Of a DNA stretch of 64,000 bases, positions 7,884-50,438 are shown piece by piece. Numbering within the stretch: the first letter of the stretch is position 1; every line of letters starts with the position of its first letter. The stretch spans positions 50,110-114,109 of the forward strand of contig CAVEMS010000005.1 of assembly GCA_963616935.1 (NCBI GenBank), read 5' to 3'. Source of the stretch: a bacterium (lineage in GTDB: Bacteria; Bacillota_I; Bacilli_A; RFN20; CAG-826). The notes below the pieces were generated by a model. That model worked only from the letters and a program-made list of their open reading frames with translations. It did not search any database and was not told where the DNA came from. The translations under genes were made by a program, and so were the position numbers.

Positions 7884-7939
7884 TGTTTTTACCTCTCTTA
7901 AATATGATAGATAAATTTCTAGAAAATTGCCATATTAGG

Positions 7940-7970
7940 CAAAAAGGCCCCCTTAATGAGAGGGGCCTTG
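7940..7970 (-). terminator. Rho-independent terminator after rplQ
   Basis: AAGGCCCC-loop-GGGGCCTT hairpin followed by a U-run on the minus strand, 13 nt downstream of the rplQ stop. Confidence 0.6.
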
Positions 7971-7982
7971 TTTGATTTAAGC

Positions 7983-8384
7983 TTAGTCAACCCACTTAAC
8001 GAGTTCGACTTCGGCGTTGTCGCCTTTGCGGGCGCCAAGTTTGAGGACGGTCGTATAACCGCCTTGGCGATCTTTGAATTTCGGGCCGATCTCGTTAAAA
8101 AGTTTAGCGAGGGCTTCGACGCCTTTTTCATCGACGATGCCATGACGGACGACGCGAGCGGCTTGACGACGGCTGGCTAAGTCGCCGGCTTTGGCGTAAG
8201 TAACCATCTTCGCGGCCAAGGTGACGAGTTCTGGGGTGACACCCGAAGTGACTTTCACTTGTCCATGAACGATGAGCTCGCTTACGACGTTGCGAAGCAT
8301 GCTGTAGTTCTTCGAAGCGGTATAACCGGTCTTGAATCTGACGCCTGCTTTGCCGTGGACGTTCTTTCTTCCTGTTGCTGCCAT
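7983..8384 (-). CDS. rplQ: 50S ribosomal protein L17
   Basis: 133 aa. Sequence (LRNVVSELIVHGQVKVT) and position after rpoA. Confidence 0.9.
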   Translation of the reverse strand: MAATGRKNVHGKAGVRFKTGYTASKNYSMLRNVVSELIVHGQVKVTSGVTPELVTLAAKMVTYAKAGDLASRRQAARVVRHGIVDEKGVEALAKLFNEIGPKFKDRQGGYTTVLKLGARKGDNAEVELVKWVD

Positions 8385-8387
8385 AGT

Positions 8388-9392
8388 TTATTCTCCTACG
8401 TAATCGCGGAAATGAAGCCCACAAGCTGCAAGCTTCTCTTTCACTTCTTTGAGCGACTTCTTGCCGAGGTTGCGGACCTTCATCATCTCGTCTTCGCTCT
8501 TTTGTGTGAGCTCCATGACGGTGCTGATTCCGGCGCGCTTCAAGCAATTGTTGCTGCGGACGCTGAGATCGAGTTCTTCGATCATCATCTCCTGATATTT
8601 GTTGTCTTCTTGCTTTTGATCATCTTTGATGGTCTTGTAGTTCTTAACGACGCTATCAAGTTCCGTGAATTTGTTCAAATGGGTGACAAGAAGCTCAGCT
8701 GCCATCGCCACGGCTTCGTCTGGTTTGACGGAACCATTGGTGGTGACTTCCAAGGTTAATTTGTCGAATTTGGAATCGTGCTCGACGCGGGTCGGCTCGA
8801 CGCTATAAGCGACTTTGGTGACCGGCGAGAAATTGCTATCGGTTGGGATAACGCTCACGACTTCGATTTTGCGTTCGGCTTTGTTGCCTTCGCTTGTGAC
8901 ATATCCACGTCCAGTTCTGACGTAGATCGTCATTTGAAGATGGCCATCTTGGTTAAGGTGAGCGATCTCCAAGTCTTTGTTGACGACGCTGACGAGAGCC
9001 GGGGTTTCAAGATCGCTGGCTTTCAAGACGCCAGGGCCTTGGAAATCGACGGTAAGCGTTTTGACATCGCCCACAGAGCTATCGACCTTAAGAACCAAGT
9101 CTTTTAGGTTGAGGATGATGGCGGTGACGTCTTCTTCGACGCCTGGGATGGCGCTGAATTCATGGCGAACGCCTTCAATATGGACGGCGAAGACGCTGGC
9201 GCCTGGAAGGGCGCTAAGCAAGACGCGACGCAAGGCGTTACCGATGGTAAGGCCGAAACCACGTTCGAGCGGTTCGATGACGAAACGGGCATAATGCTCT
9301 TCTTCATCATTTGCATCGACAGTGATGTTAAATGGTTGGAAGGGGTTTGGAAGGCGGATCTCTTCCGCTTTGACTTCGTTATTAATTGCCAT
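8388..9392 (-). CDS. rpoA: DNA-directed RNA polymerase subunit alpha
   Basis: The conserved N-terminal domain (FVIEPLERGFGLTIGNALRRVLLS) and C-terminal domain (LDLSVRSNNCLKRAGI) are both present. Start moved to the ATG at 9392, which follows an AGGAGG RBS; the track start at 9416 lacks one. Confidence 0.92.
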   Translation of the reverse strand: MAINNEVKAEEIRLPNPFQPFNITVDANDEEEHYARFVIEPLERGFGLTIGNALRRVLLSALPGASVFAVHIEGVRHEFSAIPGVEEDVTAIILNLKDLVLKVDSSVGDVKTLTVDFQGPGVLKASDLETPALVSVVNKDLEIAHLNQDGHLQMTIYVRTGRGYVTSEGNKAERKIEVVSVIPTDSNFSPVTKVAYSVEPTRVEHDSKFDKLTLEVTTNGSVKPDEAVAMAAELLVTHLNKFTELDSVVKNYKTIKDDQKQEDNKYQEMMIEELDLSVRSNNCLKRAGISTVMELTQKSEDEMMKVRNLGKKSLKEVKEKLAACGLHFRDYVGE

Positions 9393-33312: not shown

Positions 33313-35460
33313 TCAAATGTCGTCTATTTCCTTCAAATAGTCATCAACAGACGCATCGCTTGGCATCCGCCAATCACCACGGGGGGAGATAGCGACCGTT
33401 CCAACTTTCGGCCCATCAGGCAAACAGGAGCGTTTGAACTGATTCCTCCAAAAACGGCGATAGAAGGAGGAAAGCCATCCTTTTAACTGCTCTTTGCTAT
33501 ATTTTTCCCCATAAGCCATGGTCAATAACAAGAACATCTTCTTCGGACGGAATTCGTAGCGTAAGAAATAATAGATTATGAAGTCAACAACTTCATATGG
33601 TCCGACGATATCTTCAGTTTGCTGTTTTATCTCGCCACTCGAATCAGGAGGCAATAGCTCAGGACTAATCGGGGTGTTTATGATGTCTAATAGCGATGGT
33701 GAAGCCTCTGGATGGATCCTCGCATATCCTTCGCAAAGATAACGGACCAAGGTCTTTGGAATCGAGGCATTGACCCCATACATCGACATATGGTCGCCGG
33801 AATACGTCGTCCAGCCCAAACATAGTTCGCTTAAATCGCCAGTCCCTATCATCAACGATCCTTCGTCGTTGGCGATATCCATAAGAACCTGCGTTCTTTC
33901 CCTCGCTTGCGCATTTTCATAAGTGACATTTCTGTTATTTGGATCGTGCCCTATGTCTTCGAAATGCCTTAAAAGCGATTCTTTGAGGTTGATTTCCTGA
34001 AAGGAGACGCCAAGCTCATTAGAAAGGAGCAATGCGTTATCATGGGTCCTTGTCGAGGTTCCAAAAGCGGGTAGAGTGACGGCCTTTATGCCTTTGCGGT
34101 CATAGCCTAGGAAATCGAATGCCTCCACAGCGACAAGTAACGCTAAGGTGGAATCGAGCCCTCCCGATAAGCCGACCAACACCTTCTTTTGACCGACCGT
34201 TTCGAGTCTCTTGATGAGGCCCATAGCCTGGATCTTGAGTATCGTTTCGACCCTTTCTTCGTCGAATACTCCGCCATGCGGCACGAAAGGCAATGGATTA
34301 TACCTTCTAAGCACTTTCTCAGGTTTCGTAAGAGGCAAAGAGAACCCTATAGTTTGATACGAATCGTCTTGGATATTTGGGTATGTCGTCATCCTGATTC
34401 TTTCGGCCAAAATCTTTTCGACATCGATATCGCATGTTGCGCTTTCCATGGCGAAAAGTTTGGATTCTGCAAGTATTTTTCCATTTTCAGCGATGATATT
34501 GTGGCTCGAATAGACCAAATCCGTGGTGCTTTCGCTGATAGCAGCATCGCTATAGGCGTAGGCGACAAATAGCCTGCCACTTGTCATCGAGACCAAATCG
34601 CGACGGTATTTCGCTTTGCCCACCACTTCATTCGAACCGCTTAGATTGAGAATAAGGGTGGCGCCTCTAGACGCTAAAGCGGTCGACGGAGTGTCTGGCA
34701 CCCATAGATCCTCGCAAATCTCGATCCCGATGCTAAGAGACGCGTAATCCTCGTCCTGAAATAGGATCTTATTGCCGAACGGCACTTCTTCGCCCATCAA
34801 GGAGATTGTGGTGTTTTCATCATTCCATGGAGCAAAATGCCTTGCTTCATAGAATTCCGAGTAATTGGGGATATTCTTTTTGGCGATGACGCCTAAGACT
34901 TTGCCCCTATGGCATGTAATCGCGGCATTATAGATCTTATTGCCCTTCCTTATTGGTGCGCCATAGGCGAATAAGACGTCACAATCGGACGTTTCTTTGG
35001 CTATGGTTTCAATCGCCGAAAGAGTATTCTTGAGCAATGCGTCATTCCTAAATAAATCCGAACAGGTATAACCCGTTAGGCAAAGTTCAGGAAGAACCAA
35101 AATATGGACTTTGTCGTTTGCCGCTTTCTTGACGATGTCGATTATGCTTTCGGCATTCTTACTGACATTAGAGATCGAGATAGGCACGCTTTGAGAACGG
35201 ACGCGCACATAGCCATAGGGGTCAGATTGTTCTTTGTTTGGAACAAAATAATTGGGTTTTGACGGTGATATTTCGTTATTTGTCCTTAATTTAATAGTGT
35301 TCAATCCGCTTTTAACCAGATCCTCATACACTTCCGGCGAAAGGATGACGAGATCGCTATATCCGTTTTTCGTGATATGAAGCACGCCGTCGTTTTCTTT
35401 TAGGTCCTTCTCGAGTTTCGCCGTGTCTCGGAGGGATGTTATTGGTTGAATTTTTGACAT
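33313..35460 (-). CDS. nadE: Glutamine-dependent NAD+ synthase with extra N-terminal domain
   Basis: The CN-hydrolase domain (VLPELCLTGY, EICEDLW) and the synthetase domain (GLSGGLDSTL) are both present. At 715 aa, the first roughly 80 aa precede the usual start of the family. Confidence 0.88.
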   Translation of the reverse strand: MSKIQPITSLRDTAKLEKDLKENDGVLHITKNGYSDLVILSPEVYEDLVKSGLNTIKLRTNNEISPSKPNYFVPNKEQSDPYGYVRVRSQSVPISISNVSKNAESIIDIVKKAANDKVHILVLPELCLTGYTCSDLFRNDALLKNTLSAIETIAKETSDCDVLFAYGAPIRKGNKIYNAAITCHRGKVLGVIAKKNIPNYSEFYEARHFAPWNDENTTISLMGEEVPFGNKILFQDEDYASLSIGIEICEDLWVPDTPSTALASRGATLILNLSGSNEVVGKAKYRRDLVSMTSGRLFVAYAYSDAAISESTTDLVYSSHNIIAENGKILAESKLFAMESATCDIDVEKILAERIRMTTYPNIQDDSYQTIGFSLPLTKPEKVLRRYNPLPFVPHGGVFDEERVETILKIQAMGLIKRLETVGQKKVLVGLSGGLDSTLALLVAVEAFDFLGYDRKGIKAVTLPAFGTSTRTHDNALLLSNELGVSFQEINLKESLLRHFEDIGHDPNNRNVTYENAQARERTQVLMDIANDEGSLMIGTGDLSELCLGWTTYSGDHMSMYGVNASIPKTLVRYLCEGYARIHPEASPSLLDIINTPISPELLPPDSSGEIKQQTEDIVGPYEVVDFIIYYFLRYEFRPKKMFLLLTMAYGEKYSKEQLKGWLSSFYRRFWRNQFKRSCLPDGPKVGTVAISPRGDWRMPSDASVDDYLKEIDDI

Positions 35461-36519: not shown

Positions 36520-36849
36520 TCAATCTAGCCAAACCAATTCTTTTTCTACCTCCCAAAAACTCTTTCCTTCGAAAATCCTCTCTCTAAAAACCTTTTCTCT
36601 AAGTTCTTCCTCGGTCTTCCCTTGCATTTCAATGCAATTGTAATCGACAAGATCGCCGTCCGAACCATATACGTTTTCATACGTCTTATTGTCAATGTTG
36701 TTCGCTTTCCATTTCGTGATTTGAACGTGCATATGATTGTCTTCGTCGAAATACCCCTCGAAAAAATATATATGGCCCGCATAAAAAAGCGTTGCGTCAG
36801 CATTCCACCAACCAGTGTCAAGAAAATGATTTAAATTACCATTTATCAT
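36520..36849 (-). CDS. Orphan 109-aa protein (last gene of the XRE/ImmA cassette)
   Basis: GGAGGA RBS 8 nt upstream. The start overlaps the upstream gene by 14 nt. Acidic, Trp/Phe-rich, with no TM helix and no motif I recognise. Confidence 0.55.
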   Translation of the reverse strand: MINGNLNHFLDTGWWNADATLFYAGHIYFFEGYFDEDNHMHVQITKWKANNIDNKTYENVYGSDGDLVDYNCIEMQGKTEEELREKVFRERIFEGKSFWEVEKELVWLD

Positions 36850-37228
36850 AACCTATATCCTCCAATAAATTTGCATATTTTTCTTTTATTTCTTCACTTA
36901 ACGGCTCAGCTGGCTGCCTATCAAGATTAGGCTTGTATATATGCATATGCCAAACATCATCCTTCTTGTTTCCGCCATTCAGCTTTGCTTCCGGATGAAG
37001 GGCTATTTCTACAATAGGTTCATGATTTTTACCATATATTCTCATCGCACGAAACTTTCCTTTTTTCTTTATTACATAAATAGAATTTGCCGAAAAAGAA
37101 TAATCGGGCATTGAATGATTCGAATCACGGCCTTCCAATATCTCTTCTCCATTTCTCAAAACCTCAACTGTCCTATACTCAACATCCATATACCGATGGT
37201 TTTGAGCGACAGATCCTCTAGATGCCAT
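36836..37228 (-). CDS. Orphan 130-aa protein (fourth gene of the XRE/ImmA cassette)
   Basis: GGAGGAA RBS. The start lies 4 nt after the stop of the DUF4417-like gene. Basic, His-rich core (KFRAMRIYGKNHEPIVEIALHPE..WHMHIY). No family recognised. Confidence 0.55.
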   Translation of the reverse strand: MASRGSVAQNHRYMDVEYRTVEVLRNGEEILEGRDSNHSMPDYSFSANSIYVIKKKGKFRAMRIYGKNHEPIVEIALHPEAKLNGGNKKDDVWHMHIYKPNLDRQPAEPLSEEIKEKYANLLEDIGYDKW

Positions 37229-37231
37229 TTT

Positions 37232-37942
37232 TCATTCCTCCATATTGCCATTAGTTGCGTCCCAAGTGAACAAACGCATTTGGTCACGCTTTTTCAATTG
37301 CTTCTTACCGCCAAAAGTATCTTCATATGGAACGATGCAAACGTCATCAGGAATACCTTTGATCCTTTGGCCGACGCATATTTGCCTTGACCGAGGAAAT
37401 CTCTTTCTCAATTCCATTAAACCATCGAGAAAAGCCGAACGACTTAGATCGTTATTGACCCCTAACGTGGAAATGAAAAAAACCGATCCATCACGCAATC
37501 CCGAAAAACAAATATCGTACGTTTTTTCATCAACCCATCCGACAACCGGATAGACCCTAATTCCATAGCTTTGCAAAAATCTTCCAAACCATCTGGATTT
37601 TCCGACGGCTTGTATTACCGACCATTCGCTCATTCCTGGATGCATGCTGAAATCCAATGATGTCGCTCCATAATAACCAGAAATTTTCTCTATGAATTTC
37701 AGGGGATTGTTATACTCTCTTTCCAGGACCTCATCATATAAAAACGAATGAACGATTTTTCTTTCTTTGTCTACGTCTTGGGCGGACAAATTATTAGGGT
37801 TTATTAAAAACAAATCGCTTCCAACCAACGATATAGGCATTTTCTCTTTCTCTATGAAGGGTATATCAAATTTATCTTTCTCCCAATTCTTAGCTTCCGG
37901 CCTCGTGACCTTAATATACGTTTGATTGCTATAGATTGGCAT
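37232..37942 (-). CDS. DUF4417-like protein
   Basis: The segment KSRWFGRFLQSYGIRVYPVVGWVDEKTYDICFSGLRDGSVFFISTLG resembles the DUF4417 core as I remember it. The ATG at 37942 follows a GGAGGGGG RBS and lies 1 nt after the ImmA stop. The track start at 37987 is inside the ImmA gene. Confidence 0.5.
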   Translation of the reverse strand: MPIYSNQTYIKVTRPEAKNWEKDKFDIPFIEKEKMPISLVGSDLFLINPNNLSAQDVDKERKIVHSFLYDEVLEREYNNPLKFIEKISGYYGATSLDFSMHPGMSEWSVIQAVGKSRWFGRFLQSYGIRVYPVVGWVDEKTYDICFSGLRDGSVFFISTLGVNNDLSRSAFLDGLMELRKRFPRSRQICVGQRIKGIPDDVCIVPYEDTFGGKKQLKKRDQMRLFTWDATNGNMEE

Positions 37943-37943
37943 A

Positions 37944-38594
37944 TCACAAGCCCCCTCCACCAGATGACCCGAATCTGTTCTTAACACAAATTAAGGATTT
38001 TTGCTTTGTCGCCTTCACTGGCATATCTTCAGAAGCTTTCACATTAAATTCCCGCCAAACTTTGACGTATCTAGTGTTAGCGGCCGAAAGCGTAACATGA
38101 TATTTCTTTTTTATATTTTTTACTGAAAGTTTCAAACACTGTTGATAAGGCATCAGAAATTCAGAAGCAAACGTATTGGCTTGCCATTCCGGATTTTCGT
38201 AAATTTTATGGCTGCACGAAATGGCACCAGTCCTTGCCAAAACCATTGTGTTTAAGATTCTGTGCAAAACAAAATGGCCAATTTCATGGGCTATCGTAAA
38301 ATGTGCCCTGCAATATTTCTTACGGGCCGCTTCTTTATACACAGTTTCCTTAATATATATGGTCCCTTGGGTTATATCCGTTTTGGCTTCCTCACCTAAT
38401 TCGAAGATGAGATCATCGTCCGGAAGAACAAAGAAATTGAAATCGTATTTGGCGAATTTGAAAGTTAAGATTTCTAGCGCTTTTAAAACGTCCACATAAG
38501 CATCATCTGATGGTGTTATCATTCTTCTCGTGAATTGAGCAATGTTTCTTATAGAAACGGTTTTCAATGGTTTTGCTATCTCATTTTCCATCAT
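37944..38594 (-). CDS. ImmA/IrrE-family zinc metallopeptidase (COG2856)
   Basis: HEIGH zinc motif (FTIAHEIGHFVLH) followed by EWQANTFASEFLMP, the signature pair of the family. Overlaps the XRE gene by 14 nt. Confidence 0.85.
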   Translation of the reverse strand: MMENEIAKPLKTVSIRNIAQFTRRMITPSDDAYVDVLKALEILTFKFAKYDFNFFVLPDDDLIFELGEEAKTDITQGTIYIKETVYKEAARKKYCRAHFTIAHEIGHFVLHRILNTMVLARTGAISCSHKIYENPEWQANTFASEFLMPYQQCLKLSVKNIKKKYHVTLSAANTRYVKVWREFNVKASEDMPVKATKQKSLICVKNRFGSSGGGGL

Positions 38595-38946
38595 TATCGT
38601 CTCCTAAAAGCCGCATAATCGCTTTGCACTCTTCCAAAGAAAGGTCATTGAGTTTCCTGGAAAGCATGAACGCCAATTGTCTTTGCTCGCTCAGCGTCGA
38701 ATTCAAAGGTATCGACACCTTGCTTGCAGCTTCCGCTTCCGCCGCGAAAAGGATTTCGATTCTCTCACGAGACAAACGATAATTTGCAATTATTTTTTGG
38801 ATAAAATCTTGGGGAATCTCTCTAACTCCATTTTCTATTGCTGATAAATACGAAATAGAAACACCAAGTTTTTTCGACATCATCGACAAATTCTCTTCAT
38901 TATCTATCCTTATTTTTCTTAATTCTTTTCCAAATTTCGTAATCAT
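38581..38946 (-). CDS. XRE-family helix-turn-helix transcriptional regulator
   Basis: HTH_3-type segment LRKIRIDNEENLSMMSKKLGVSISYLSAIENG. Start set at MITKFGK (ATG at 38946), behind a GAGGAGG RBS. Confidence 0.85.
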   Translation of the reverse strand: MITKFGKELRKIRIDNEENLSMMSKKLGVSISYLSAIENGVREIPQDFIQKIIANYRLSRERIEILFAAEAEAASKVSIPLNSTLSEQRQLAFMLSRKLNDLSLEECKAIMRLLGDDNDGK

Positions 38947-38967
38947 TTTTCTATCCTCCTCAATCAT

Positions 38968-38997
38968 ATTATACTTTTAAGAGATATTTTTCTACAA
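38968..38997 (-). promoter_or_regulatory. Promoter of the XRE/ImmA cassette (TTGTAG-18-TATAAT)
   Basis: The reverse strand reads TTGTAG (38997-38992), an 18-nt spacer, then TATAAT (38973-38968). The RBS and ATG follow within 25 nt. Confidence 0.6.
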
Positions 38998-39111
38998 TTT
39001 TGTGTAATTTCATTTTTTTAATATCACTCAAGATAAAATGCGCCAAATTTTCACCGATTTGCGCCGACGGTTTTTGACGTTCCTATCATCGCAAATGATC
39101 GTAAGTCACAT

Positions 39112-39143
39112 CAAAAAAAGGACCGCGATTCTCATCACGATCC
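39112..39143 (-). terminator. Rho-independent terminator after mscL
   Basis: The minus-strand RNA is GGAUCGUGA-UGAGAA-UCGCGGUCC (9 bp, two of them G-U) followed by UUUUUUU, 23 nt after the mscL stop. It insulates the cassette from mscL read-through. Confidence 0.7.
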
Positions 39144-39165
39144 TAATTTCTAATGTTTGGAAGAT

Positions 39166-39891
39166 TTATTCGGCTTTCTTGTCGTCTTTAGCGGCGTTGG
39201 CCGTTTTCATCTCAGCAAGGATTTGCGTGAGTAGCTCAGTCTCAGTCGGGGCTGGAGCGGCTGGAGCGGCGACAACCGGCCTCTCTTCCGGATGCCTCAA
39301 ATAGTATTCTTCTTTCATCCTGTCGTTGAATTCTTGACGCTTCTTGGCACTCCATTGAGCAATTTTAACAATGGTGAATAAGGTCAAAGCGATGATAAGG
39401 AACGAGATAGCGGCATTGATAAGCGTTCCCCAATCGATAACGGCAGAAAGGTTGTAAGTGTAAACTGATCCGTGAAGGGTGTATTTGCTCGTAAGGAACG
39501 TCTTGGCGGATTCAATAAGGTTAGGATTCTCAGTGAGGTAATTTGGATTTTCCGCAATCTGAGTCGCATAGTTCCCTTCCGCAACTTTTGTCGCTAACGA
39601 CTGCAAGTCGCCGGCAGCGAACTTCTGCCCGATGCCGTCAATTCCCCTTTGGGCATCATTAAGCGCAGGAAGAACTGTTACCAATCCTTTTAAGCCTCCA
39701 GGAACTCCCCAGGTGCAAACGCTTAACAAGATGTTGGTGAATGCGGTGACGATTGCGCTGAACGCGCTGCCCATGATGACACCAACGGCCATATCAAGGA
39801 CGTTTCCTTTAGATACGAATTTCTTGAAATCGTTCCAGAGATTCTTACCTCTAGCCTTCTTTGCGGCTTTCTTTTCTTCTTTTGTGCTCAT
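39166..39891 (-). CDS. mscL: Large-conductance mechanosensitive channel with expanded loop and C-terminal tail
   Basis: TM1 region FKKFVSKGNVLDMAVGVIMGSAFSAIV and TM2 region IDWGTLINAAISFLIIALTLFTIVK match MscL. At 241 aa it is well above the usual roughly 130-150. Confidence 0.8.
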   Translation of the reverse strand: MSTKEEKKAAKKARGKNLWNDFKKFVSKGNVLDMAVGVIMGSAFSAIVTAFTNILLSVCTWGVPGGLKGLVTVLPALNDAQRGIDGIGQKFAAGDLQSLATKVAEGNYATQIAENPNYLTENPNLIESAKTFLTSKYTLHGSVYTYNLSAVIDWGTLINAAISFLIIALTLFTIVKIAQWSAKKRQEFNDRMKEEYYLRHPEERPVVAAPAAPAPTETELLTQILAEMKTANAAKDDKKAE

Positions 39892-40516
39892 GTGTTATTA
39901 ATAGCCTCCATTAAAAGCAAAGATAATAATAAACTTTGATATTCTTAGTTCAAGGTAAAACGGAAAAAAATCCAAAGTTGTAAAAAATAAACGAAAACAA
40001 TTTTCCATCGTCAATACATCCCGCAAATCTTTGCTCAAAACCGTGTAAACAACTGAAAAAAGAGGCCCATTGATCATTGAATCTATCTAATCAATGCAAT
40101 TTTGATACATTGTTTCTTGCTTTTTTCACATTTTTTAGAAAAACAGTTCATCTTACATGAAAACTTTATCAAATTTCGGATACCGATAAATTTTATCGAT
40201 ATTTTACAAATTAGCATTCATCGTAATTTAATTAGATTTTTTATACAGTGTATCAAACTTGAATTTTAGTCTATTGACAGGGTTTATAAGCAACCCACTA
40301 GGTATCAAAAAATATGGCTTCAAACGCACTTTTTATGATTTTATGAAAATTTTGTAAAGCGTTTCATTCATTTTCTTTCAATGCTCGGCAAAGCATTTAG
40401 ATTGAAATATCCTTGCGCACATTTTAGATTATTCGAGCGAGGGCGAAAAAAGAAAAAAACAAAGCCTGCGTTAAGGTGTGTTTTTTTAACCCCCTAATTA
40501 AAGAAGAGGAAAGACT

Positions 40517-42901
40517 ATGATTAAGGTCAAGAAAAGAGACGGTTCGATTGTTGAATTTGATTTGATGAAAATCCAAAACGCCATTGAGAAAGCCTTTTTG
40601 GCGGAGCATAAAGCGATCACTAAGGATATGCTAGAAATCCTTTCGCTACGTGTAACGGCGGACTTCAACCGCAAAATCGTCAAAGACGTCGTGGCAGTCG
40701 AAGACATCCAAGACTCCGTCGAAATCGTTTTGATCCAAGCCGGCTATGTCGATGTCGCCCGCAGCTACATGGATTATCGCAAAAAGCATGCAGATCTAAG
40801 GGATATTCGCAAAACGGAGCTAAATTATGCCTCAGTCGTCGACAATTATTTGAAGGTCAACGATTGGCGCGTTAAGGAAAATAGCACCGTCACTTATTCC
40901 GTCGGCGGCTTGATCCTTTCCAATAGCGGAGCCGTCACCGCCAACTATTGGTTAAGCCAAATCTACGACAAGGAAATCGGCGATGCGCACCGTAACGCCG
41001 ATATCCATATTCACGACTTGAGCATGCTCACCGGCTATTGCGCAGGCTGGTCGCTTAAACAGCTTATCCAACAAGGCTTAGGCGGAGTCTCAGGGAAAAT
41101 CACTTCCTCCCCTGCCAAGCACTTAATGACCTTAAGCAACCAAATGGTCAATTTCTTGGGCATCATGCAAAATGAATGGGCGGGCGCACAAGCCTTCTCT
41201 TCCTTTGATACTTATTTGGCGCCATTCGTCAAAGTTGATAACCTCAGCTACAAACAAGTAAAGCAAGCCGTTCAATCCTTCATCTTCGGCGTCAACACCC
41301 CATCGCGTTGGGGAACCCAGGCTCCATTTACGAACATCACCTTGGATTGGACCGTGCCAGAAGACCTTAAGAACCTCCCTGCCATCGTTGGCGGAAAAGA
41401 AATGGATTTCACCTATGGCGATTGCAAGAAAGAGATGGATATGGTGAACCGCGCTTTCATCGAAGTCATGATCGAAGGCGATGCCAACGGCCGTGGATTC
41501 CAATATCCGATCCCAACCTATTCCATCACCAAAGATTTTGATTGGAGCGAAAGCGAAAACAACAAGCTTCTCTTCACGATGACAGCCAAATACGGCACCC
41601 CTTATTTCAGCAACTACATCAATAGCGACATGAAACCGAGCGACGTCCGCTCGATGTGCTGCCGACTCCGCTTGGATCTACGCGAACTCCGCAAAAAGAG
41701 CGGCGGATTCTTCGGAAGTGGCGAAAGCACTGGTTCCATCGGCGTCGTCACGATCAATATGCCTCGCATCGCATATTTATCCACCGACAAGAACGATTTC
41801 TATTCCCGCTTGGATCATATGATGGATATCGCCGCAAGATCCCTCGATATCAAGCGTAAAACCATCACAAAGCTCCTTGAAGCAGGCTTATACCCATACA
41901 CAAAGCACTATCTCGGCGCTTTCTCGAATCACTTCAGCACCATCGGCTTAGTCGGTATGAACGAAGCTTGTTTGAATGCCCGTTGGATCAAAGAGGATCT
42001 AACCCATGAAGAGGCACAAAACTTCACCACCGAAGTCCTTAACCACATGCGTACCCGCCTTAGCGACTACCAAGAAAGATACGGAGATCTCTTTAACCTC
42101 GAAGCCACGCCAGCCGAAAGCACCGCCTTTAGGCTCGCTAAGCACGATAGAGAAAGATATCCGGACATCATCACGGCTGGCGAACCTGGCGAAGTTCCTT
42201 ATTACACGAATAGCTCCCATCTTCCAGTCGGATACACCAATGACATCTTCTCTGCTTTGGACATCGAGGATAAGTTCCAGACGCTATATACGTCGGGAAC
42301 CGTATTCCATGCCTTCTTAGGCCAACGCCTCCCAAATTGGGAAAGCTGCATGAAACTCGTCCGCAAGATCGCTGAGAATTATAAGCTCCCCTACTACACG
42401 ATGAGCCCAACATATTCCATCTGCCGCGAGCACGGATATCTTGCCGGCGAAGTCTGGAAATGCCCGCATTGCGGCAAAGAGACAGAAGTCTATAGCCGTA
42501 TCACCGGATACTATCGCCCAGTCAAGAATTGGAACGATGGCAAACTTCAGGAATTCAAAGACCGCAAGACCTATGATGTTGAGCATACGAATGACGAAGA
42601 GCCGCACGATCATTGCGATTGCCATGAAGAGCATGAAGAAAAGGCGATAGCTCCAAAAATCACCGAAACTCTCCTCTTCACTTCTCCGACTTGCCCGAAT
42701 TGCAAGATGGCGAAGGCAATGCTCGACAAAGCCGGAATCGCCTATAAGAACGTGGATGCGATAGAGAACAAAGACATGACTTTGGCCTATGGCGTGGCCA
42801 AGGCCCCAACCCTCTTGGTTCCTAATGGCGATAGCTACGATGTCTATGAGGACGCCTCTCATATCCGTGGTTATATCCTCGACGTAATGAAAGGAAACTA
42901 A
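40517..42901 (+). CDS. nrdD: Anaerobic (class III) ribonucleoside-triphosphate reductase with N-terminal ATP-cone and C-terminal thioredoxin-fold domain
   Basis: ATP-cone start MIKVKKRDGSIVEFD, a Zn/Cys region ..CREHG..KCPHCG, and the glycyl-radical motif SRITGYYRPV. A further 104 aa follow, including FTSPTCPNCKMAK. Confidence 0.9.
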   Translation: MIKVKKRDGSIVEFDLMKIQNAIEKAFLAEHKAITKDMLEILSLRVTADFNRKIVKDVVAVEDIQDSVEIVLIQAGYVDVARSYMDYRKKHADLRDIRKTELNYASVVDNYLKVNDWRVKENSTVTYSVGGLILSNSGAVTANYWLSQIYDKEIGDAHRNADIHIHDLSMLTGYCAGWSLKQLIQQGLGGVSGKITSSPAKHLMTLSNQMVNFLGIMQNEWAGAQAFSSFDTYLAPFVKVDNLSYKQVKQAVQSFIFGVNTPSRWGTQAPFTNITLDWTVPEDLKNLPAIVGGKEMDFTYGDCKKEMDMVNRAFIEVMIEGDANGRGFQYPIPTYSITKDFDWSESENNKLLFTMTAKYGTPYFSNYINSDMKPSDVRSMCCRLRLDLRELRKKSGGFFGSGESTGSIGVVTINMPRIAYLSTDKNDFYSRLDHMMDIAARSLDIKRKTITKLLEAGLYPYTKHYLGAFSNHFSTIGLVGMNEACLNARWIKEDLTHEEAQNFTTEVLNHMRTRLSDYQERYGDLFNLEATPAESTAFRLAKHDRERYPDIITAGEPGEVPYYTNSSHLPVGYTNDIFSALDIEDKFQTLYTSGTVFHAFLGQRLPNWESCMKLVRKIAENYKLPYYTMSPTYSICREHGYLAGEVWKCPHCGKETEVYSRITGYYRPVKNWNDGKLQEFKDRKTYDVEHTNDEEPHDHCDCHEEHEEKAIAPKITETLLFTSPTCPNCKMAKAMLDKAGIAYKNVDAIENKDMTLAYGVAKAPTLLVPNGDSYDVYEDASHIRGYILDVMKGN

Positions 42902-49202: not shown

Positions 49203-50438
49203 TTATTTCAAACGGAATTTGGCGATGCGGGCGCCCATGCTCGTTCCATAGCCGTAAGGATAGACGACAAAGGTTTGTTTATCCTGAAGCAAGAACTTCT
49301 CGCTTGGTTTATCGACCATGCTTCCGGAGACAATCTTCTTATCGGTCAACACATGAACTTTCTTATCGCTCAATTTGCGTTGGACATTAACGTCGGCGGC
49401 CATCGGAACGTCTTTGACGACAGCATAATAGACGCCATCCTTTTCGAACATCGCCGCGCCATCGGCTTTAAGGGAAGAGGGTTCGGCATCCAAAACGACA
49501 TAACGATTCTTCTTTAGCCATGAGCCGATTTGCTTGATGATTATCTTGTCCAAATACGGCACCGATCCATCGACTTTCGGGCCGACATTGAGCAATAAGT
49601 TGCATCCTGCTTCTCTAGTATCGATGAGTTCGTTTATCAAATAGGAATACGATTTGAAGCAATAATCGTCTTTCGTGTATCCCCAATGATCGTGGATGGA
49701 ATCACACACTTCGCCAGCCAAAGGACGAGAGGCATCGGAAGAGACTGGGAAAGCCCTCCCTCTTTCGAAGGTCACGCAGTCGATCTCTTCGGCTCCTTTT
49801 TGGCCGCAGAAATCAAGCCCGGTGTTATTGGTGATGATGGCGCGTGGCTGAAGCTTATGGATCATCTTATAAATCTCATTCGGGAAAGTTACGCCTTCTG
49901 GTAATCCCCAAGTGCCATCGAACCAGAAACCACCAACAGGACCATAATTGAGGCAAAGGAGCTCAATCGATTTCCTTAAGTATTCGAAATAGGCATCGAA
50001 ATTACCTTCTTGGAAATCCTTTTGCCACCAATCGATGACGGTATGGTAGAAAACCGGCATGAGATCATATTCGTGGCAGGCTTCGACGAATTCCTTGATG
50101 AGGTCGCGACCAGCCGGCGAATGGATGGCGTCATACTCGTTAAGGCCTTTGGTGTCATATAGCGAAAAGCCTTCGTGATGGCGAGTTGTCAAAGCGACAT
50201 ATCTGCATCCGCCTTCTTTGGCGAGCTTGCAAAGCTCCTTCGCCCAATTCTTCTTCACTTTGAAATGAGGAAGGGTTTGCGCGATGTACTCATCCATCGT
50301 AATCGGCTTTTTGATCCTTCCGCCGTTATACGCGGATTCGAAATACCATTCCCCTGCCGCCAAAGAGCTATAAAGACCGAAGTGTACAAACATGCCGTAA
50401 CCTAGTTTACGGAAATCTCTAACATATGAATAATCCAT
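49203..50438 (-). CDS. Alpha-L-fucosidase (GH29)
   Basis: GMFVHFGLYS and GGFWFDG motifs typical of GH29. Start at MDYSYV (ATG at 50438) behind an AAAGGGGA RBS. No signal peptide. Confidence 0.82.
   Translation of the reverse strand: MDYSYVRDFRKLGYGMFVHFGLYSSLAAGEWYFESAYNGGRIKKPITMDEYIAQTLPHFKVKKNWAKELCKLAKEGGCRYVALTTRHHEGFSLYDTKGLNEYDAIHSPAGRDLIKEFVEACHEYDLMPVFYHTVIDWWQKDFQEGNFDAYFEYLRKSIELLCLNYGPVGGFWFDGTWGLPEGVTFPNEIYKMIHKLQPRAIITNNTGLDFCGQKGAEEIDCVTFERGRAFPVSSDASRPLAGEVCDSIHDHWGYTKDDYCFKSYSYLINELIDTREAGCNLLLNVGPKVDGSVPYLDKIIIKQIGSWLKKNRYVVLDAEPSSLKADGAAMFEKDGVYYAVVKDVPMAADVNVQRKLSDKKVHVLTDKKIVSGSMVDKPSEKFLLQDKQTFVVYPYGYGTSMGARIAKFRLK

Follow-up and report, generated by a model that had tools for sequence, protein, structure and literature searches.

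In a 64,000-nucleotide stretch of contig CAVEMS010000005.1 (assembly GCA_963616935.1, forward strand, positions 50,110 to 114,109; hereafter the window, in which position 1 is the first letter), from a bacterium assigned to CAG-826, we analysed a cassette of five tightly packed minus-strand genes, here called g1 to g5. These encode an XRE-family helix-turn-helix (HTH) repressor, a metallopeptidase of the M78 family, a member of the Pfam family DUF4417 and two small proteins. We interpret the cassette as a self-contained, horizontally transferred conflict module, acting in phage defence, as a toxin-antitoxin (TA)-like system or as both, in which the XRE/M78 pair would gate an effector trio made up of g3, g4 and g5. 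On the strength of sequence comparisons, we assign this interpretation a probability of about 0.55. The features on which the argument is built are the following.

38581-38946, minus strand: g1, XRE-family HTH repressor with a C-terminal extension, 121 aa
37944-38594, minus strand: g2, M78 (ImmA/IrrE/CapP-type) zinc metallopeptidase with an HEIGH motif, 216 aa
37232-37942, minus strand: g3, DUF4417 protein, predicted TIM barrel and putative enzyme of the effector trio, 236 aa
36836-37228, minus strand: g4, all-beta protein with an N-terminal tail motif and HxH, 130 aa
36520-36849, minus strand: g5, Trp-rich protein with FLDTGWW and GKSFWEVE motifs, 109 aa
38968-39004, minus strand: promoter with an operator-like palindrome, namely, CACAA-AA-TTGTAG (39004-38992), an 18-nt spacer and TATAAT (38973-38968)
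39119-39144, minus strand: intrinsic terminator (11-pair stem, then a T-run) of mscL, the gene upstream, marking the cassette boundary

The linkage of the five components is ancient and strict, because the layout is kept in distant subtypes and below 30% sequence identity. We scanned a reference set holding one genome per species (185,579 genomes) and searched the open reading frames (ORFs) of the 24 g3 loci obtained with hidden Markov models. In these loci g4 always follows g3, and g5 comes next in 23 of them, the contig of the other one (L025; L numbers are our handles for loci) ending inside g4. The hosts belong to Oscillospiraceae, Lachnospiraceae, Eubacteriaceae, Saccharofermentans, Veillonellaceae and metagenome-assembled genomes labelled Bacillales, and include Butyrivibrio sp. 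INlla18, Pseudobutyrivibrio, Selenomonas ruminantium and Schwartzia succinivorans DSM 10502. Many of them are bacteria of the gut and rumen. Protein look-ups at 74%, 55%, 47% and 41% identity returned the same arrangement, namely, a DUF4417 gene and genes for proteins of ~130 aa and ~110-118 aa, with XRE and M78 genes alongside, in unrelated chromosomal contexts.

The regulatory genes lie upstream of the trio in most loci and downstream of g5 in Selenomonadales, and in Butyrivibrio-type loci a single HTH-M78 fusion protein takes the place of the pair and matches RmrA, the M78/HTH component of RosmerTA systems, over its full length (5e-41 in L026, 9e-40 in L029). Both of these loci also carry a gene for a protein of ~175 aa between the fused regulator and the trio (L026:9278-9796; L029:9328-9864), with a PIN domain in L026 (Pfam, 1e-5) and no family match in L029; the RmrA-type and PIN pair of L026 may itself constitute a RosmerTA-like module. 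Three g4 members near the detection limit (E ~1e-3, <30% identity) all occur in the order HTH-M78-DUF4417 (207-215 aa)-g4. Homologues of g5 of 96-97 aa hold the same position in distant cassettes: the ~96-aa ORF after g4 in L074 and L076 is one, and the contig of L075 ends 132 nt after g4. A third subtype, 31-34% identical to g3, is represented by L079, where the five genes are inserted between pstS and pstC, and by L039, where the trio stands directly after a type I restriction enzyme gene. L079 is an unverified GenBank record (MT837061.1, from INPHARED) named 'Bacteriophage sp.' that looks like a fragment of a bacterial chromosome, and its cassette sits exactly between pstS and pstC-pstA-pstB.

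A previous reading of this DNA from its letters (hereafter the original prediction) had asked whether the five-gene order recurs in unrelated genomes, and it does: DUF4417-g4-g5 is present in all loci, nearly always together with XRE and M78 genes. Its description of g4 and g5 as orphans has to be abandoned, since both are small conserved families found next to a DUF4417 gene in every locus examined. It had also envisaged that these genes could turn out to be the lysogeny-control edge of ordinary prophages, or that the three downstream proteins could belong to housekeeping families. What we found is that the linkage is kept, that no cassette-type g3 occurs among 2.9 million viral contigs (IMG/VR), and that g3 to g5 match no housekeeping family.

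The gene structure is that of a compact unit. The predicted five packed genes, each with a GGAGG-type ribosome-binding site (RBS), are borne out by the ORFs, their junctions and our reading of the sequence: g1 and g2 overlap by 14 nt, g2 and g3 are separated by 1 nt, g3 and g4 by 3 nt, g4 and g5 overlap by 14 nt, and a GGAGG-type RBS lies 6-10 nt 5' of every start. The extent of 36520-38967 given by the ORF list is corrected to 36520-38946; the XRE gene is as originally called, except that its start becomes the ATG at 38946, which has GAGGAGG seven bases before it, whereas no RBS precedes the start of the longer ORF at 38967. The start of g3 is an ATG, and its homologues all begin MP.Y.

The composition of the cassette is foreign to its surroundings. 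Its GC content is 38.4%, compared with 47.6% elsewhere in the window (z = -3.1), which makes it the lowest 2.4-kb stretch of the window, and GC3 is 30-42% in the cassette against 49-60% in neighbouring genes; the AT-richness noticed originally is therefore real, although the hand count of 22-33% GC was too low. In agreement with the original prediction, there is no integrase, recombinase or phage gene within +/-10 kb. No tRNA and no Rfam family were detected in the window, and no att-like direct repeats were found flanking the cassette. Relatives of the window genome keep a NadE-ATP-grasp-[X]-mscL-nrdD backbone, in which X is a gene for a Y_phosphatase3 tyrosine phosphatase, between the ATP-grasp gene and mscL (L080-L083, ~7890-9300); in three of the four, L081-L083, the phosphatase is joined to a NUDIX domain and the next gene encodes a PQ-loop transporter. 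Because relatives hold other genes in the same slot, the cassette is a lineage-specific acquisition, and its horizontal acquisition, as first proposed, is supported both by these alternative occupants and by the low GC.

Insertion sites vary across hosts, with flanking genes that differ in every lineage. Among them are several of conflict type. Type I restriction-modification (R-M) genes adjoin the trio in L010, L034 and L039, and the Mokosh gene MkoA does so in L016 (8e-97). L023 carries a Dcm-type methyltransferase, a Fic protein and a large serine recombinase; L075 has an N6_N4 methyltransferase nearby; L007 has a Schlafen/AlbA_2-type ATPase and a resolvase; and L038 has a HipA-like kinase, judged from sequence only. 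None of the cassette loci lies in a prophage. The viral DUF4417 matches (n=35) do not exceed 33% identity, are mostly ParB fusions of 400-460 aa and lack g4 and g5, with the exception of L039. On plasmids we found five distant DUF4417 genes.

The TTGTAG-18-TATAAT promoter of the original prediction is present as stated. Its -35 hexamer (TTGTAG, 38997-38992) matches the consensus at 3/6 positions only, which explains why a generic promoter scan missed it. The same hexamer forms the right half of a palindrome, CACAA-N2-TTGTR, that occurs once in the window against 0.07 expected. In seven divergent loci CACAA-N2-TTGTG is found upstream of g1 with its position kept, the right half again being the -35 hexamer and an extended -10 following 17-18 nt after it. 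The candidate operator stretch at the g1 promoter is CACAAAATTGTAG. A generic palindrome search of the promoter singled out no operator, and the candidate came only from the comparison of loci; from this conservation it is plausible that the palindrome serves as an autoregulatory operator. The mscL terminator, which had been said to insulate the cassette, was confirmed at 39144-39119.

Most close relatives have, between the M78 gene and g3, a conserved leader of ~110 nt (L015:9888-10003, L016:1244-1361, L017:5997-6117, L018:9870-10003, L019:4377-4494 and L020:9892-10003). Three hairpins are predicted in it, the first with compensatory changes and the last predicted to sequester the RBS and ATG of g3; an Rfam search of the leader in these related loci gave no match. 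The window has no such leader, only 1 nt separating g2 from g3, and therefore the five genes form one transcription unit here.

The identities proposed for the two regulators were confirmed. g1 matches Pfam HTH_3 (1e-9) and the PADLOC models HTH_VI (3e-11) and capH (6e-5, a weak match across its full length). g2 is a member of Peptidase_M78 (PF06114), with 2e-12 and 47.2 bits against a cutoff of 22, and its PADLOC matches are capP (1e-17, the best) and RmrA (2e-11). By sequence its only solved relative is CapP (7t5t, 8e-4), with the HExxH core alone being aligned: the 216 residues of g2 cover model positions 55-153/242 of capP and residues 90-151 of the 291-aa CapP. Pfam places no domain after the peptidase core of g2, so that the three-domain architecture of CapP and IrrE (peptidase, linker and C-terminal GAF) is not found in it. 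Given this size and an alignment restricted to the peptidase core, a GAF sensor domain is probably absent from g2.

The third gene had been described as DUF4417-like, which named the right family and understated the relationship. g3 is a true member of DUF4417 (PF14386; E = 8e-28, 97.5 bits against a cutoff of 28.9, model positions 6-173/183), and in a protein search all of its homologue clusters (58/58) carry PF14386, nearly all being 234-238 aa long. Its AlphaFold2 (AF2) model (pLDDT 88, pTM 0.85) is an alpha/beta barrel. When this model was compared with the PDB using Foldseek, tRNA-guanine transglycosylases (TGTs) were the best matches (probability 0.9-1.0, E 4e-3 to 3e-2, TMq ~0.45), followed by other TIM barrels at lower probability. 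Against BFVD the same model retrieved three DUF4417 proteins and then phage queuine tRNA-ribosyltransferases (probability 0.98-0.99, E 5e-3). The fold searches also gave weak matches to AP endonuclease 2. Residues D70, D97, D200 and S158 are invariant in the homologue alignment, and S99 and D143 are near-invariant; g3 has no CxCxxC...H zinc motif. Among GenBank phages there are 469 DUF4417 records, mostly from mycobacteriophages and streptococcal phages and annotated as ParB-like nucleases, and a recent survey found ParB-DUF4417 fusions to be enriched in phages. The PHROG label 'nuclease' that attaches to g3 comes from the N-terminal, ParB-type portion of phrog_940, a portion that is missing in g3. 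None of the published literature on DUF4417/PF14386 that we found concerns defence.

Neither g4 nor g5 belongs to a curated family in Pfam, NCBIfam, PHROGs or PADLOC, and the profiles of g3, g4 and g5 retrieved nothing meaningful from the sequences of solved structures. The g4 family comprises 119 clusters among 1.84 billion representative proteins (HMMER), almost all of them stand-alone proteins of 120-135 aa. AF2 models g4 (pLDDT 82) as a beta meander of six strands, with two helices at the C-terminus and residues 1-12 predicted to be disordered. Despite this predicted disorder, nothing in the family is better conserved than the extreme N-terminus: the tail M-[GSA]-[GSA]-[RNKC]-G is present in 60/84 full-length representatives, most often as MGGRGT. 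H94xH96 is invariant across the wide family, where R63 and Y65 are near-invariant, and H78 and E80 are invariant among closer homologues. In the model R63, Y65, H78 and E80 lie on the two strands preceding the HxH strand, which suggests that g4 carries a metal or catalytic site. Two candidate relatives of g4 were discarded. DUF6978 scored 19.8 bits against a cutoff of 29.6, with only the window's g4 of 57 diverse members reaching E < 0.01, and the best PDB match of the model (E 0.1), a beta-meander insert of GtfA/SdgB/Asp1, was treated as no match. For g5, we found 36 homologue clusters and no PDB match.

The effector genes are subject to turnover. A 1-nt deletion (GGCC to GGC) frameshifts g4 in two independent assemblies of the window's species (L011:10715-11106 and L013:1691-2082), which show no other difference from the window in the DNA around it (100% identity); since both assemblies share the deletion, a g4-null allele segregates in the population. 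Split or truncated copies of g3 occur in L022, L024 and L038. L023 (4333-7356) has a single DUF4417 gene and, behind it, a tandem array of three g4-g5 pairs, of which the last is degenerate. The genes diverged pair by pair: the second pair is 47-51% identical to the first and 78-82% identical to the third. g5, in turn, was never found disrupted where its own g4 is intact. This pattern, together with the pairwise divergence in L023, weakly suggests that g5 could be a neutraliser or partner of g4.

From these observations we infer how the module may work, namely, the cleavage of g1 by g2, the inducing signal, the biochemical activities of g3 to g5 and the biological role. g1 would bind the CACAA-N2-TTGTG palindrome over the -35 of the single promoter and keep the operon low. 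A stress or infection cue, which by analogy with CapP, IrrE and ImmA could be single-stranded DNA, DNA damage or a phage product, would activate the metallopeptidase g2, which would then cleave g1 and derepress the operon. The resulting burst of g3 to g5 would act through g3, a putative TIM-barrel enzyme that most likely works on nucleic acid or on g4. The small beta protein g4, with its putative His-based metal or catalytic site, would be a partner, substrate or co-effector, and g5 would be the cognate binding or neutralising partner of g4.

The case for a conflict module is made by the strict linkage, mobility without mobility genes, conflict-type neighbours, decay alleles and the analogy of the regulators. 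Several observations weigh against it. About one third of the loci lie beside recognisable defence or mobile genes, most flanking genes being ordinary metabolic or transport genes, so that enrichment in defence islands appears modest. L023, L038 and L039 have no adjacent XRE or M78 gene. Since g2 lacks the size for the GAF sensor of CapP and IrrE, the signal may differ, and g1 and g2 are co-directional, overlap one another and lie on the strand of the cargo, whereas capH and capP are divergent and upstream. g3, g4 and g5 match no PADLOC-DB v2.0.0 model at E <= 1, and thus nothing ties the effectors to proven defence proteins; by the same token the module was rightly put forward as a candidate undescribed one, as PADLOC-DB v2 does not cover it and we found no published description of the cassette. 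Finally, the resemblance of g3 to TGTs is a fold-level lead and not a family membership: the Foldseek statistics obtained with the predicted model are borderline, an hhalign comparison of the g3 alignment with one of five TGT sequences returned a probability of 0.3%, that is, no profile support, Pfam, NCBIfam and PADLOC gave no TGT match for g3, and a profile search of the PDB found nothing.

Part of this evidence could be accommodated by a chiefly selfish TA or addiction module of RosmerTA type, with g4 (or g3) as toxin, g5 as antitoxin and a split RmrA-like regulator, defence being secondary. The full-length RmrA matches of the fused proteins next to the trio favour it, as does the precedent of RosmerTA, where RmrA is partnered with many unrelated toxins (PMC10440598). 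So do the pairwise duplication and divergence of g4-g5 in L023, the contrast between disrupted g3 or g4 and an undisrupted g5, and a small module that has varied insertion sites and no mobility genes. However, five conserved genes are far above a two-gene TA system, in which g3, the largest and best conserved protein, would be left without a role; g3 to g5 match no RmrT model, and the pseudogene argument comes from few cases, in metagenome assemblies. We therefore consider this explanation possible but rather unlikely.

A stress-inducible DNA/RNA repair or modification module comparable to the IrrE/DdrO regulon, with g3 as a glycosylase, transglycosylase or AP-endonuclease-like enzyme acting on host nucleic acids, appears improbable. 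It has in its favour that IrrE/DdrO controls repair genes by the same repressor/peptidase switch (bioRxiv 10.1101/2022.04.27.489752), that the predicted fold of g3 is nearest to TGT/DpdA-type enzymes, with the weak AP endonuclease 2 matches besides, and that phage DUF4417 is usually fused to ParB, much as DpdA works with the ParB-like DpdB (PMC10164549). Yet a distribution as patchy and rare as 24 loci in 185,579 species genomes, a foreign composition, frequent inactivating alleles, loci beside R-M or Mokosh genes and a cassette without genes for base-precursor synthesis argue against such a role. As for a decayed prophage or integrative-element fragment, in which an ImmR/ImmA-type lysogeny switch would be accompanied by three moron genes, XRE with M78 is the classic switch of ICEBs1 and phi105, where immR-immA-int has the same co-directional layout (bioRxiv 10.1101/2022.04.27.489752; PMC10440598), and DUF4417 is common in phages, as the 469 records attest. 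We regard it as very improbable indeed, given that the 10 kb on either side are free of phage and integrase genes, that the same five-gene boundaries are found in many lineages, and that the 35 viral DUF4417 loci are not of the cassette type, the exception, L039, standing beside a type I restriction enzyme gene. A gated conflict module thus remains our preferred interpretation.

Some features of the flanking genes deserve mention. At 241 aa, MscL (39166-39891, minus strand) is unusually long; it contains a large insertion and has a C-terminal tail rich in Pro and Ala. The mscL-nrdD intergenic region (39900-40520) has a GC of 0.29-0.31, below that of the cassette, and no Rfam match. NrdD, the anaerobic ribonucleotide reductase (40517-42901, plus strand), carries a C-terminal thioredoxin/glutaredoxin-like domain, according to weak Pfam matches. 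On the other side, a 715-aa ORF for a glutamine-dependent NAD synthetase (33313-35460, minus strand; CN_hydrolase and NAD_synthase) starts with ~50 residues, MSKIQPITSLRDTAKLEKDL...VILSPEVYEDL, which we take to resemble the N-terminus of a Phd/YefM-type antitoxin and which could be either a fusion or an over-extended ORF.

There is growing recognition that XRE/M78 switches serve as general gates for immune and toxin modules in bacteria, and the gate described here is tied, over deep divergence, to three proteins without an assigned function, namely, a Pfam DUF and two families outside curated libraries. If the cassette is a defence system, it would bring a new effector chemistry, possibly related to transglycosylation, in a module that is compact (2.4 kb), readily cloned and at home in anaerobes of the rumen and gut. 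It would also provide the first functional handle on DUF4417, which is widespread as ParB fusions in mycobacteriophages and streptococcal phages. Should it be only a TA-like addiction module, it would still add two new protein families and a five-gene architecture.

Among known systems, type IV CBASS offers a parallel to g3 and g4 as predicted proteins. Its Cap10 is a TGT-family barrel that has lost the zinc site and the tRNA surface and whose active site holds the N-terminal tail of the partner CD-NTase; this tail starts M(G/S)G(G/S)GG, and its Gly2 bears 7-amido-7-deazaguanine, added by the QueC-like Cap9 (bioRxiv 10.1101/2025.04.06.647259). Like Cap10, g3 is modelled as a TGT-like TIM barrel without a zinc subdomain, and g4 has a near-invariant tail, M(G/S/A)(G/S)RG, that is predicted to be disordered and recalls the M(G/S)G(G/S)GG of CdnD. 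On the other hand, g3 has no detectable sequence similarity to TGTs and matches no PADLOC model, those for CBASS included, the cassette lacks a QueC-like Cap9, an OGG-like Cap11 and a CD-NTase, and g4 is a 130-aa beta protein rather than a nucleotidyltransferase. By analogy, it is tempting to speculate that g3 and g4 are an enzyme and its substrate, in which g3, as a diverged transglycosylase, would bind the tail of g4 after removal of Met1 and conjugate a nucleobase or similar group to it or transfer such a group from it; this could arm or tether g4 upon infection, with g5 restraining the complex. We consider this scenario decidedly unlikely, because QueC-like, OGG-like and nucleotidyltransferase genes are missing and the fold evidence is borderline. 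If true, DUF4417 would represent a second, independent lineage of nucleobase-protein conjugation enzymes, and hundreds of phage ParB-DUF4417 proteins would gain a function. DpdA/DpdB presents a related parallel, in that a TGT-like TIM barrel is tied to a ParB-type NTPase and phage DUF4417 is usually fused to a ParB N-terminal domain, whereas g3 has no ParB domain, the cassette has no preQ0 synthesis genes, and there is no sequence-level relationship.

The combination of an HTH repressor with an M78 peptidase is common to CapH/CapP, DdrO/IrrE, ImmR/ImmA and RosmerTA (bioRxiv 10.1101/2022.04.27.489752; PMC10440598), and the cassette belongs specifically to none of them, having no GAF domain, co-directional genes, a split regulator and no element body. 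As in CapH/CapP and DdrO/IrrE, an XRE-type HTH gene adjoins a gene for an M78 HExxH metallopeptidase, and by analogy, cleavage of the repressor by the protease would be expected to derepress the cargo. CapP nevertheless has 291 aa against the 216 of g2, its cysteine-switch position is not conserved in the alignment with g2, and the cargo of the cassette is unrelated to CBASS. With RosmerTA the cassette shares an M78/HTH component with variable, unannotated partners, a small size and mobility without mobility genes; the regulator is a single RmrA-type protein in related loci and not in the window, where HTH and peptidase are two genes, and there are three conserved partner genes instead of a single RmrT toxin. 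In comparison with ImmR/ImmA of ICEBs1 and phage phi105, integrase, excisionase and element body are lacking, and the DUF4417-g4-g5 trio occupies the position of the cargo; the co-directional order of repressor, protease and cargo behind one promoter is the same, and g2 is similar to ImmA in size, with a peptidase domain and little else. The regulatory half of the cassette is therefore of a known kind, an HTH repressor with an M78 peptidase, and its effector half consists of DUF4417 and two new small families.

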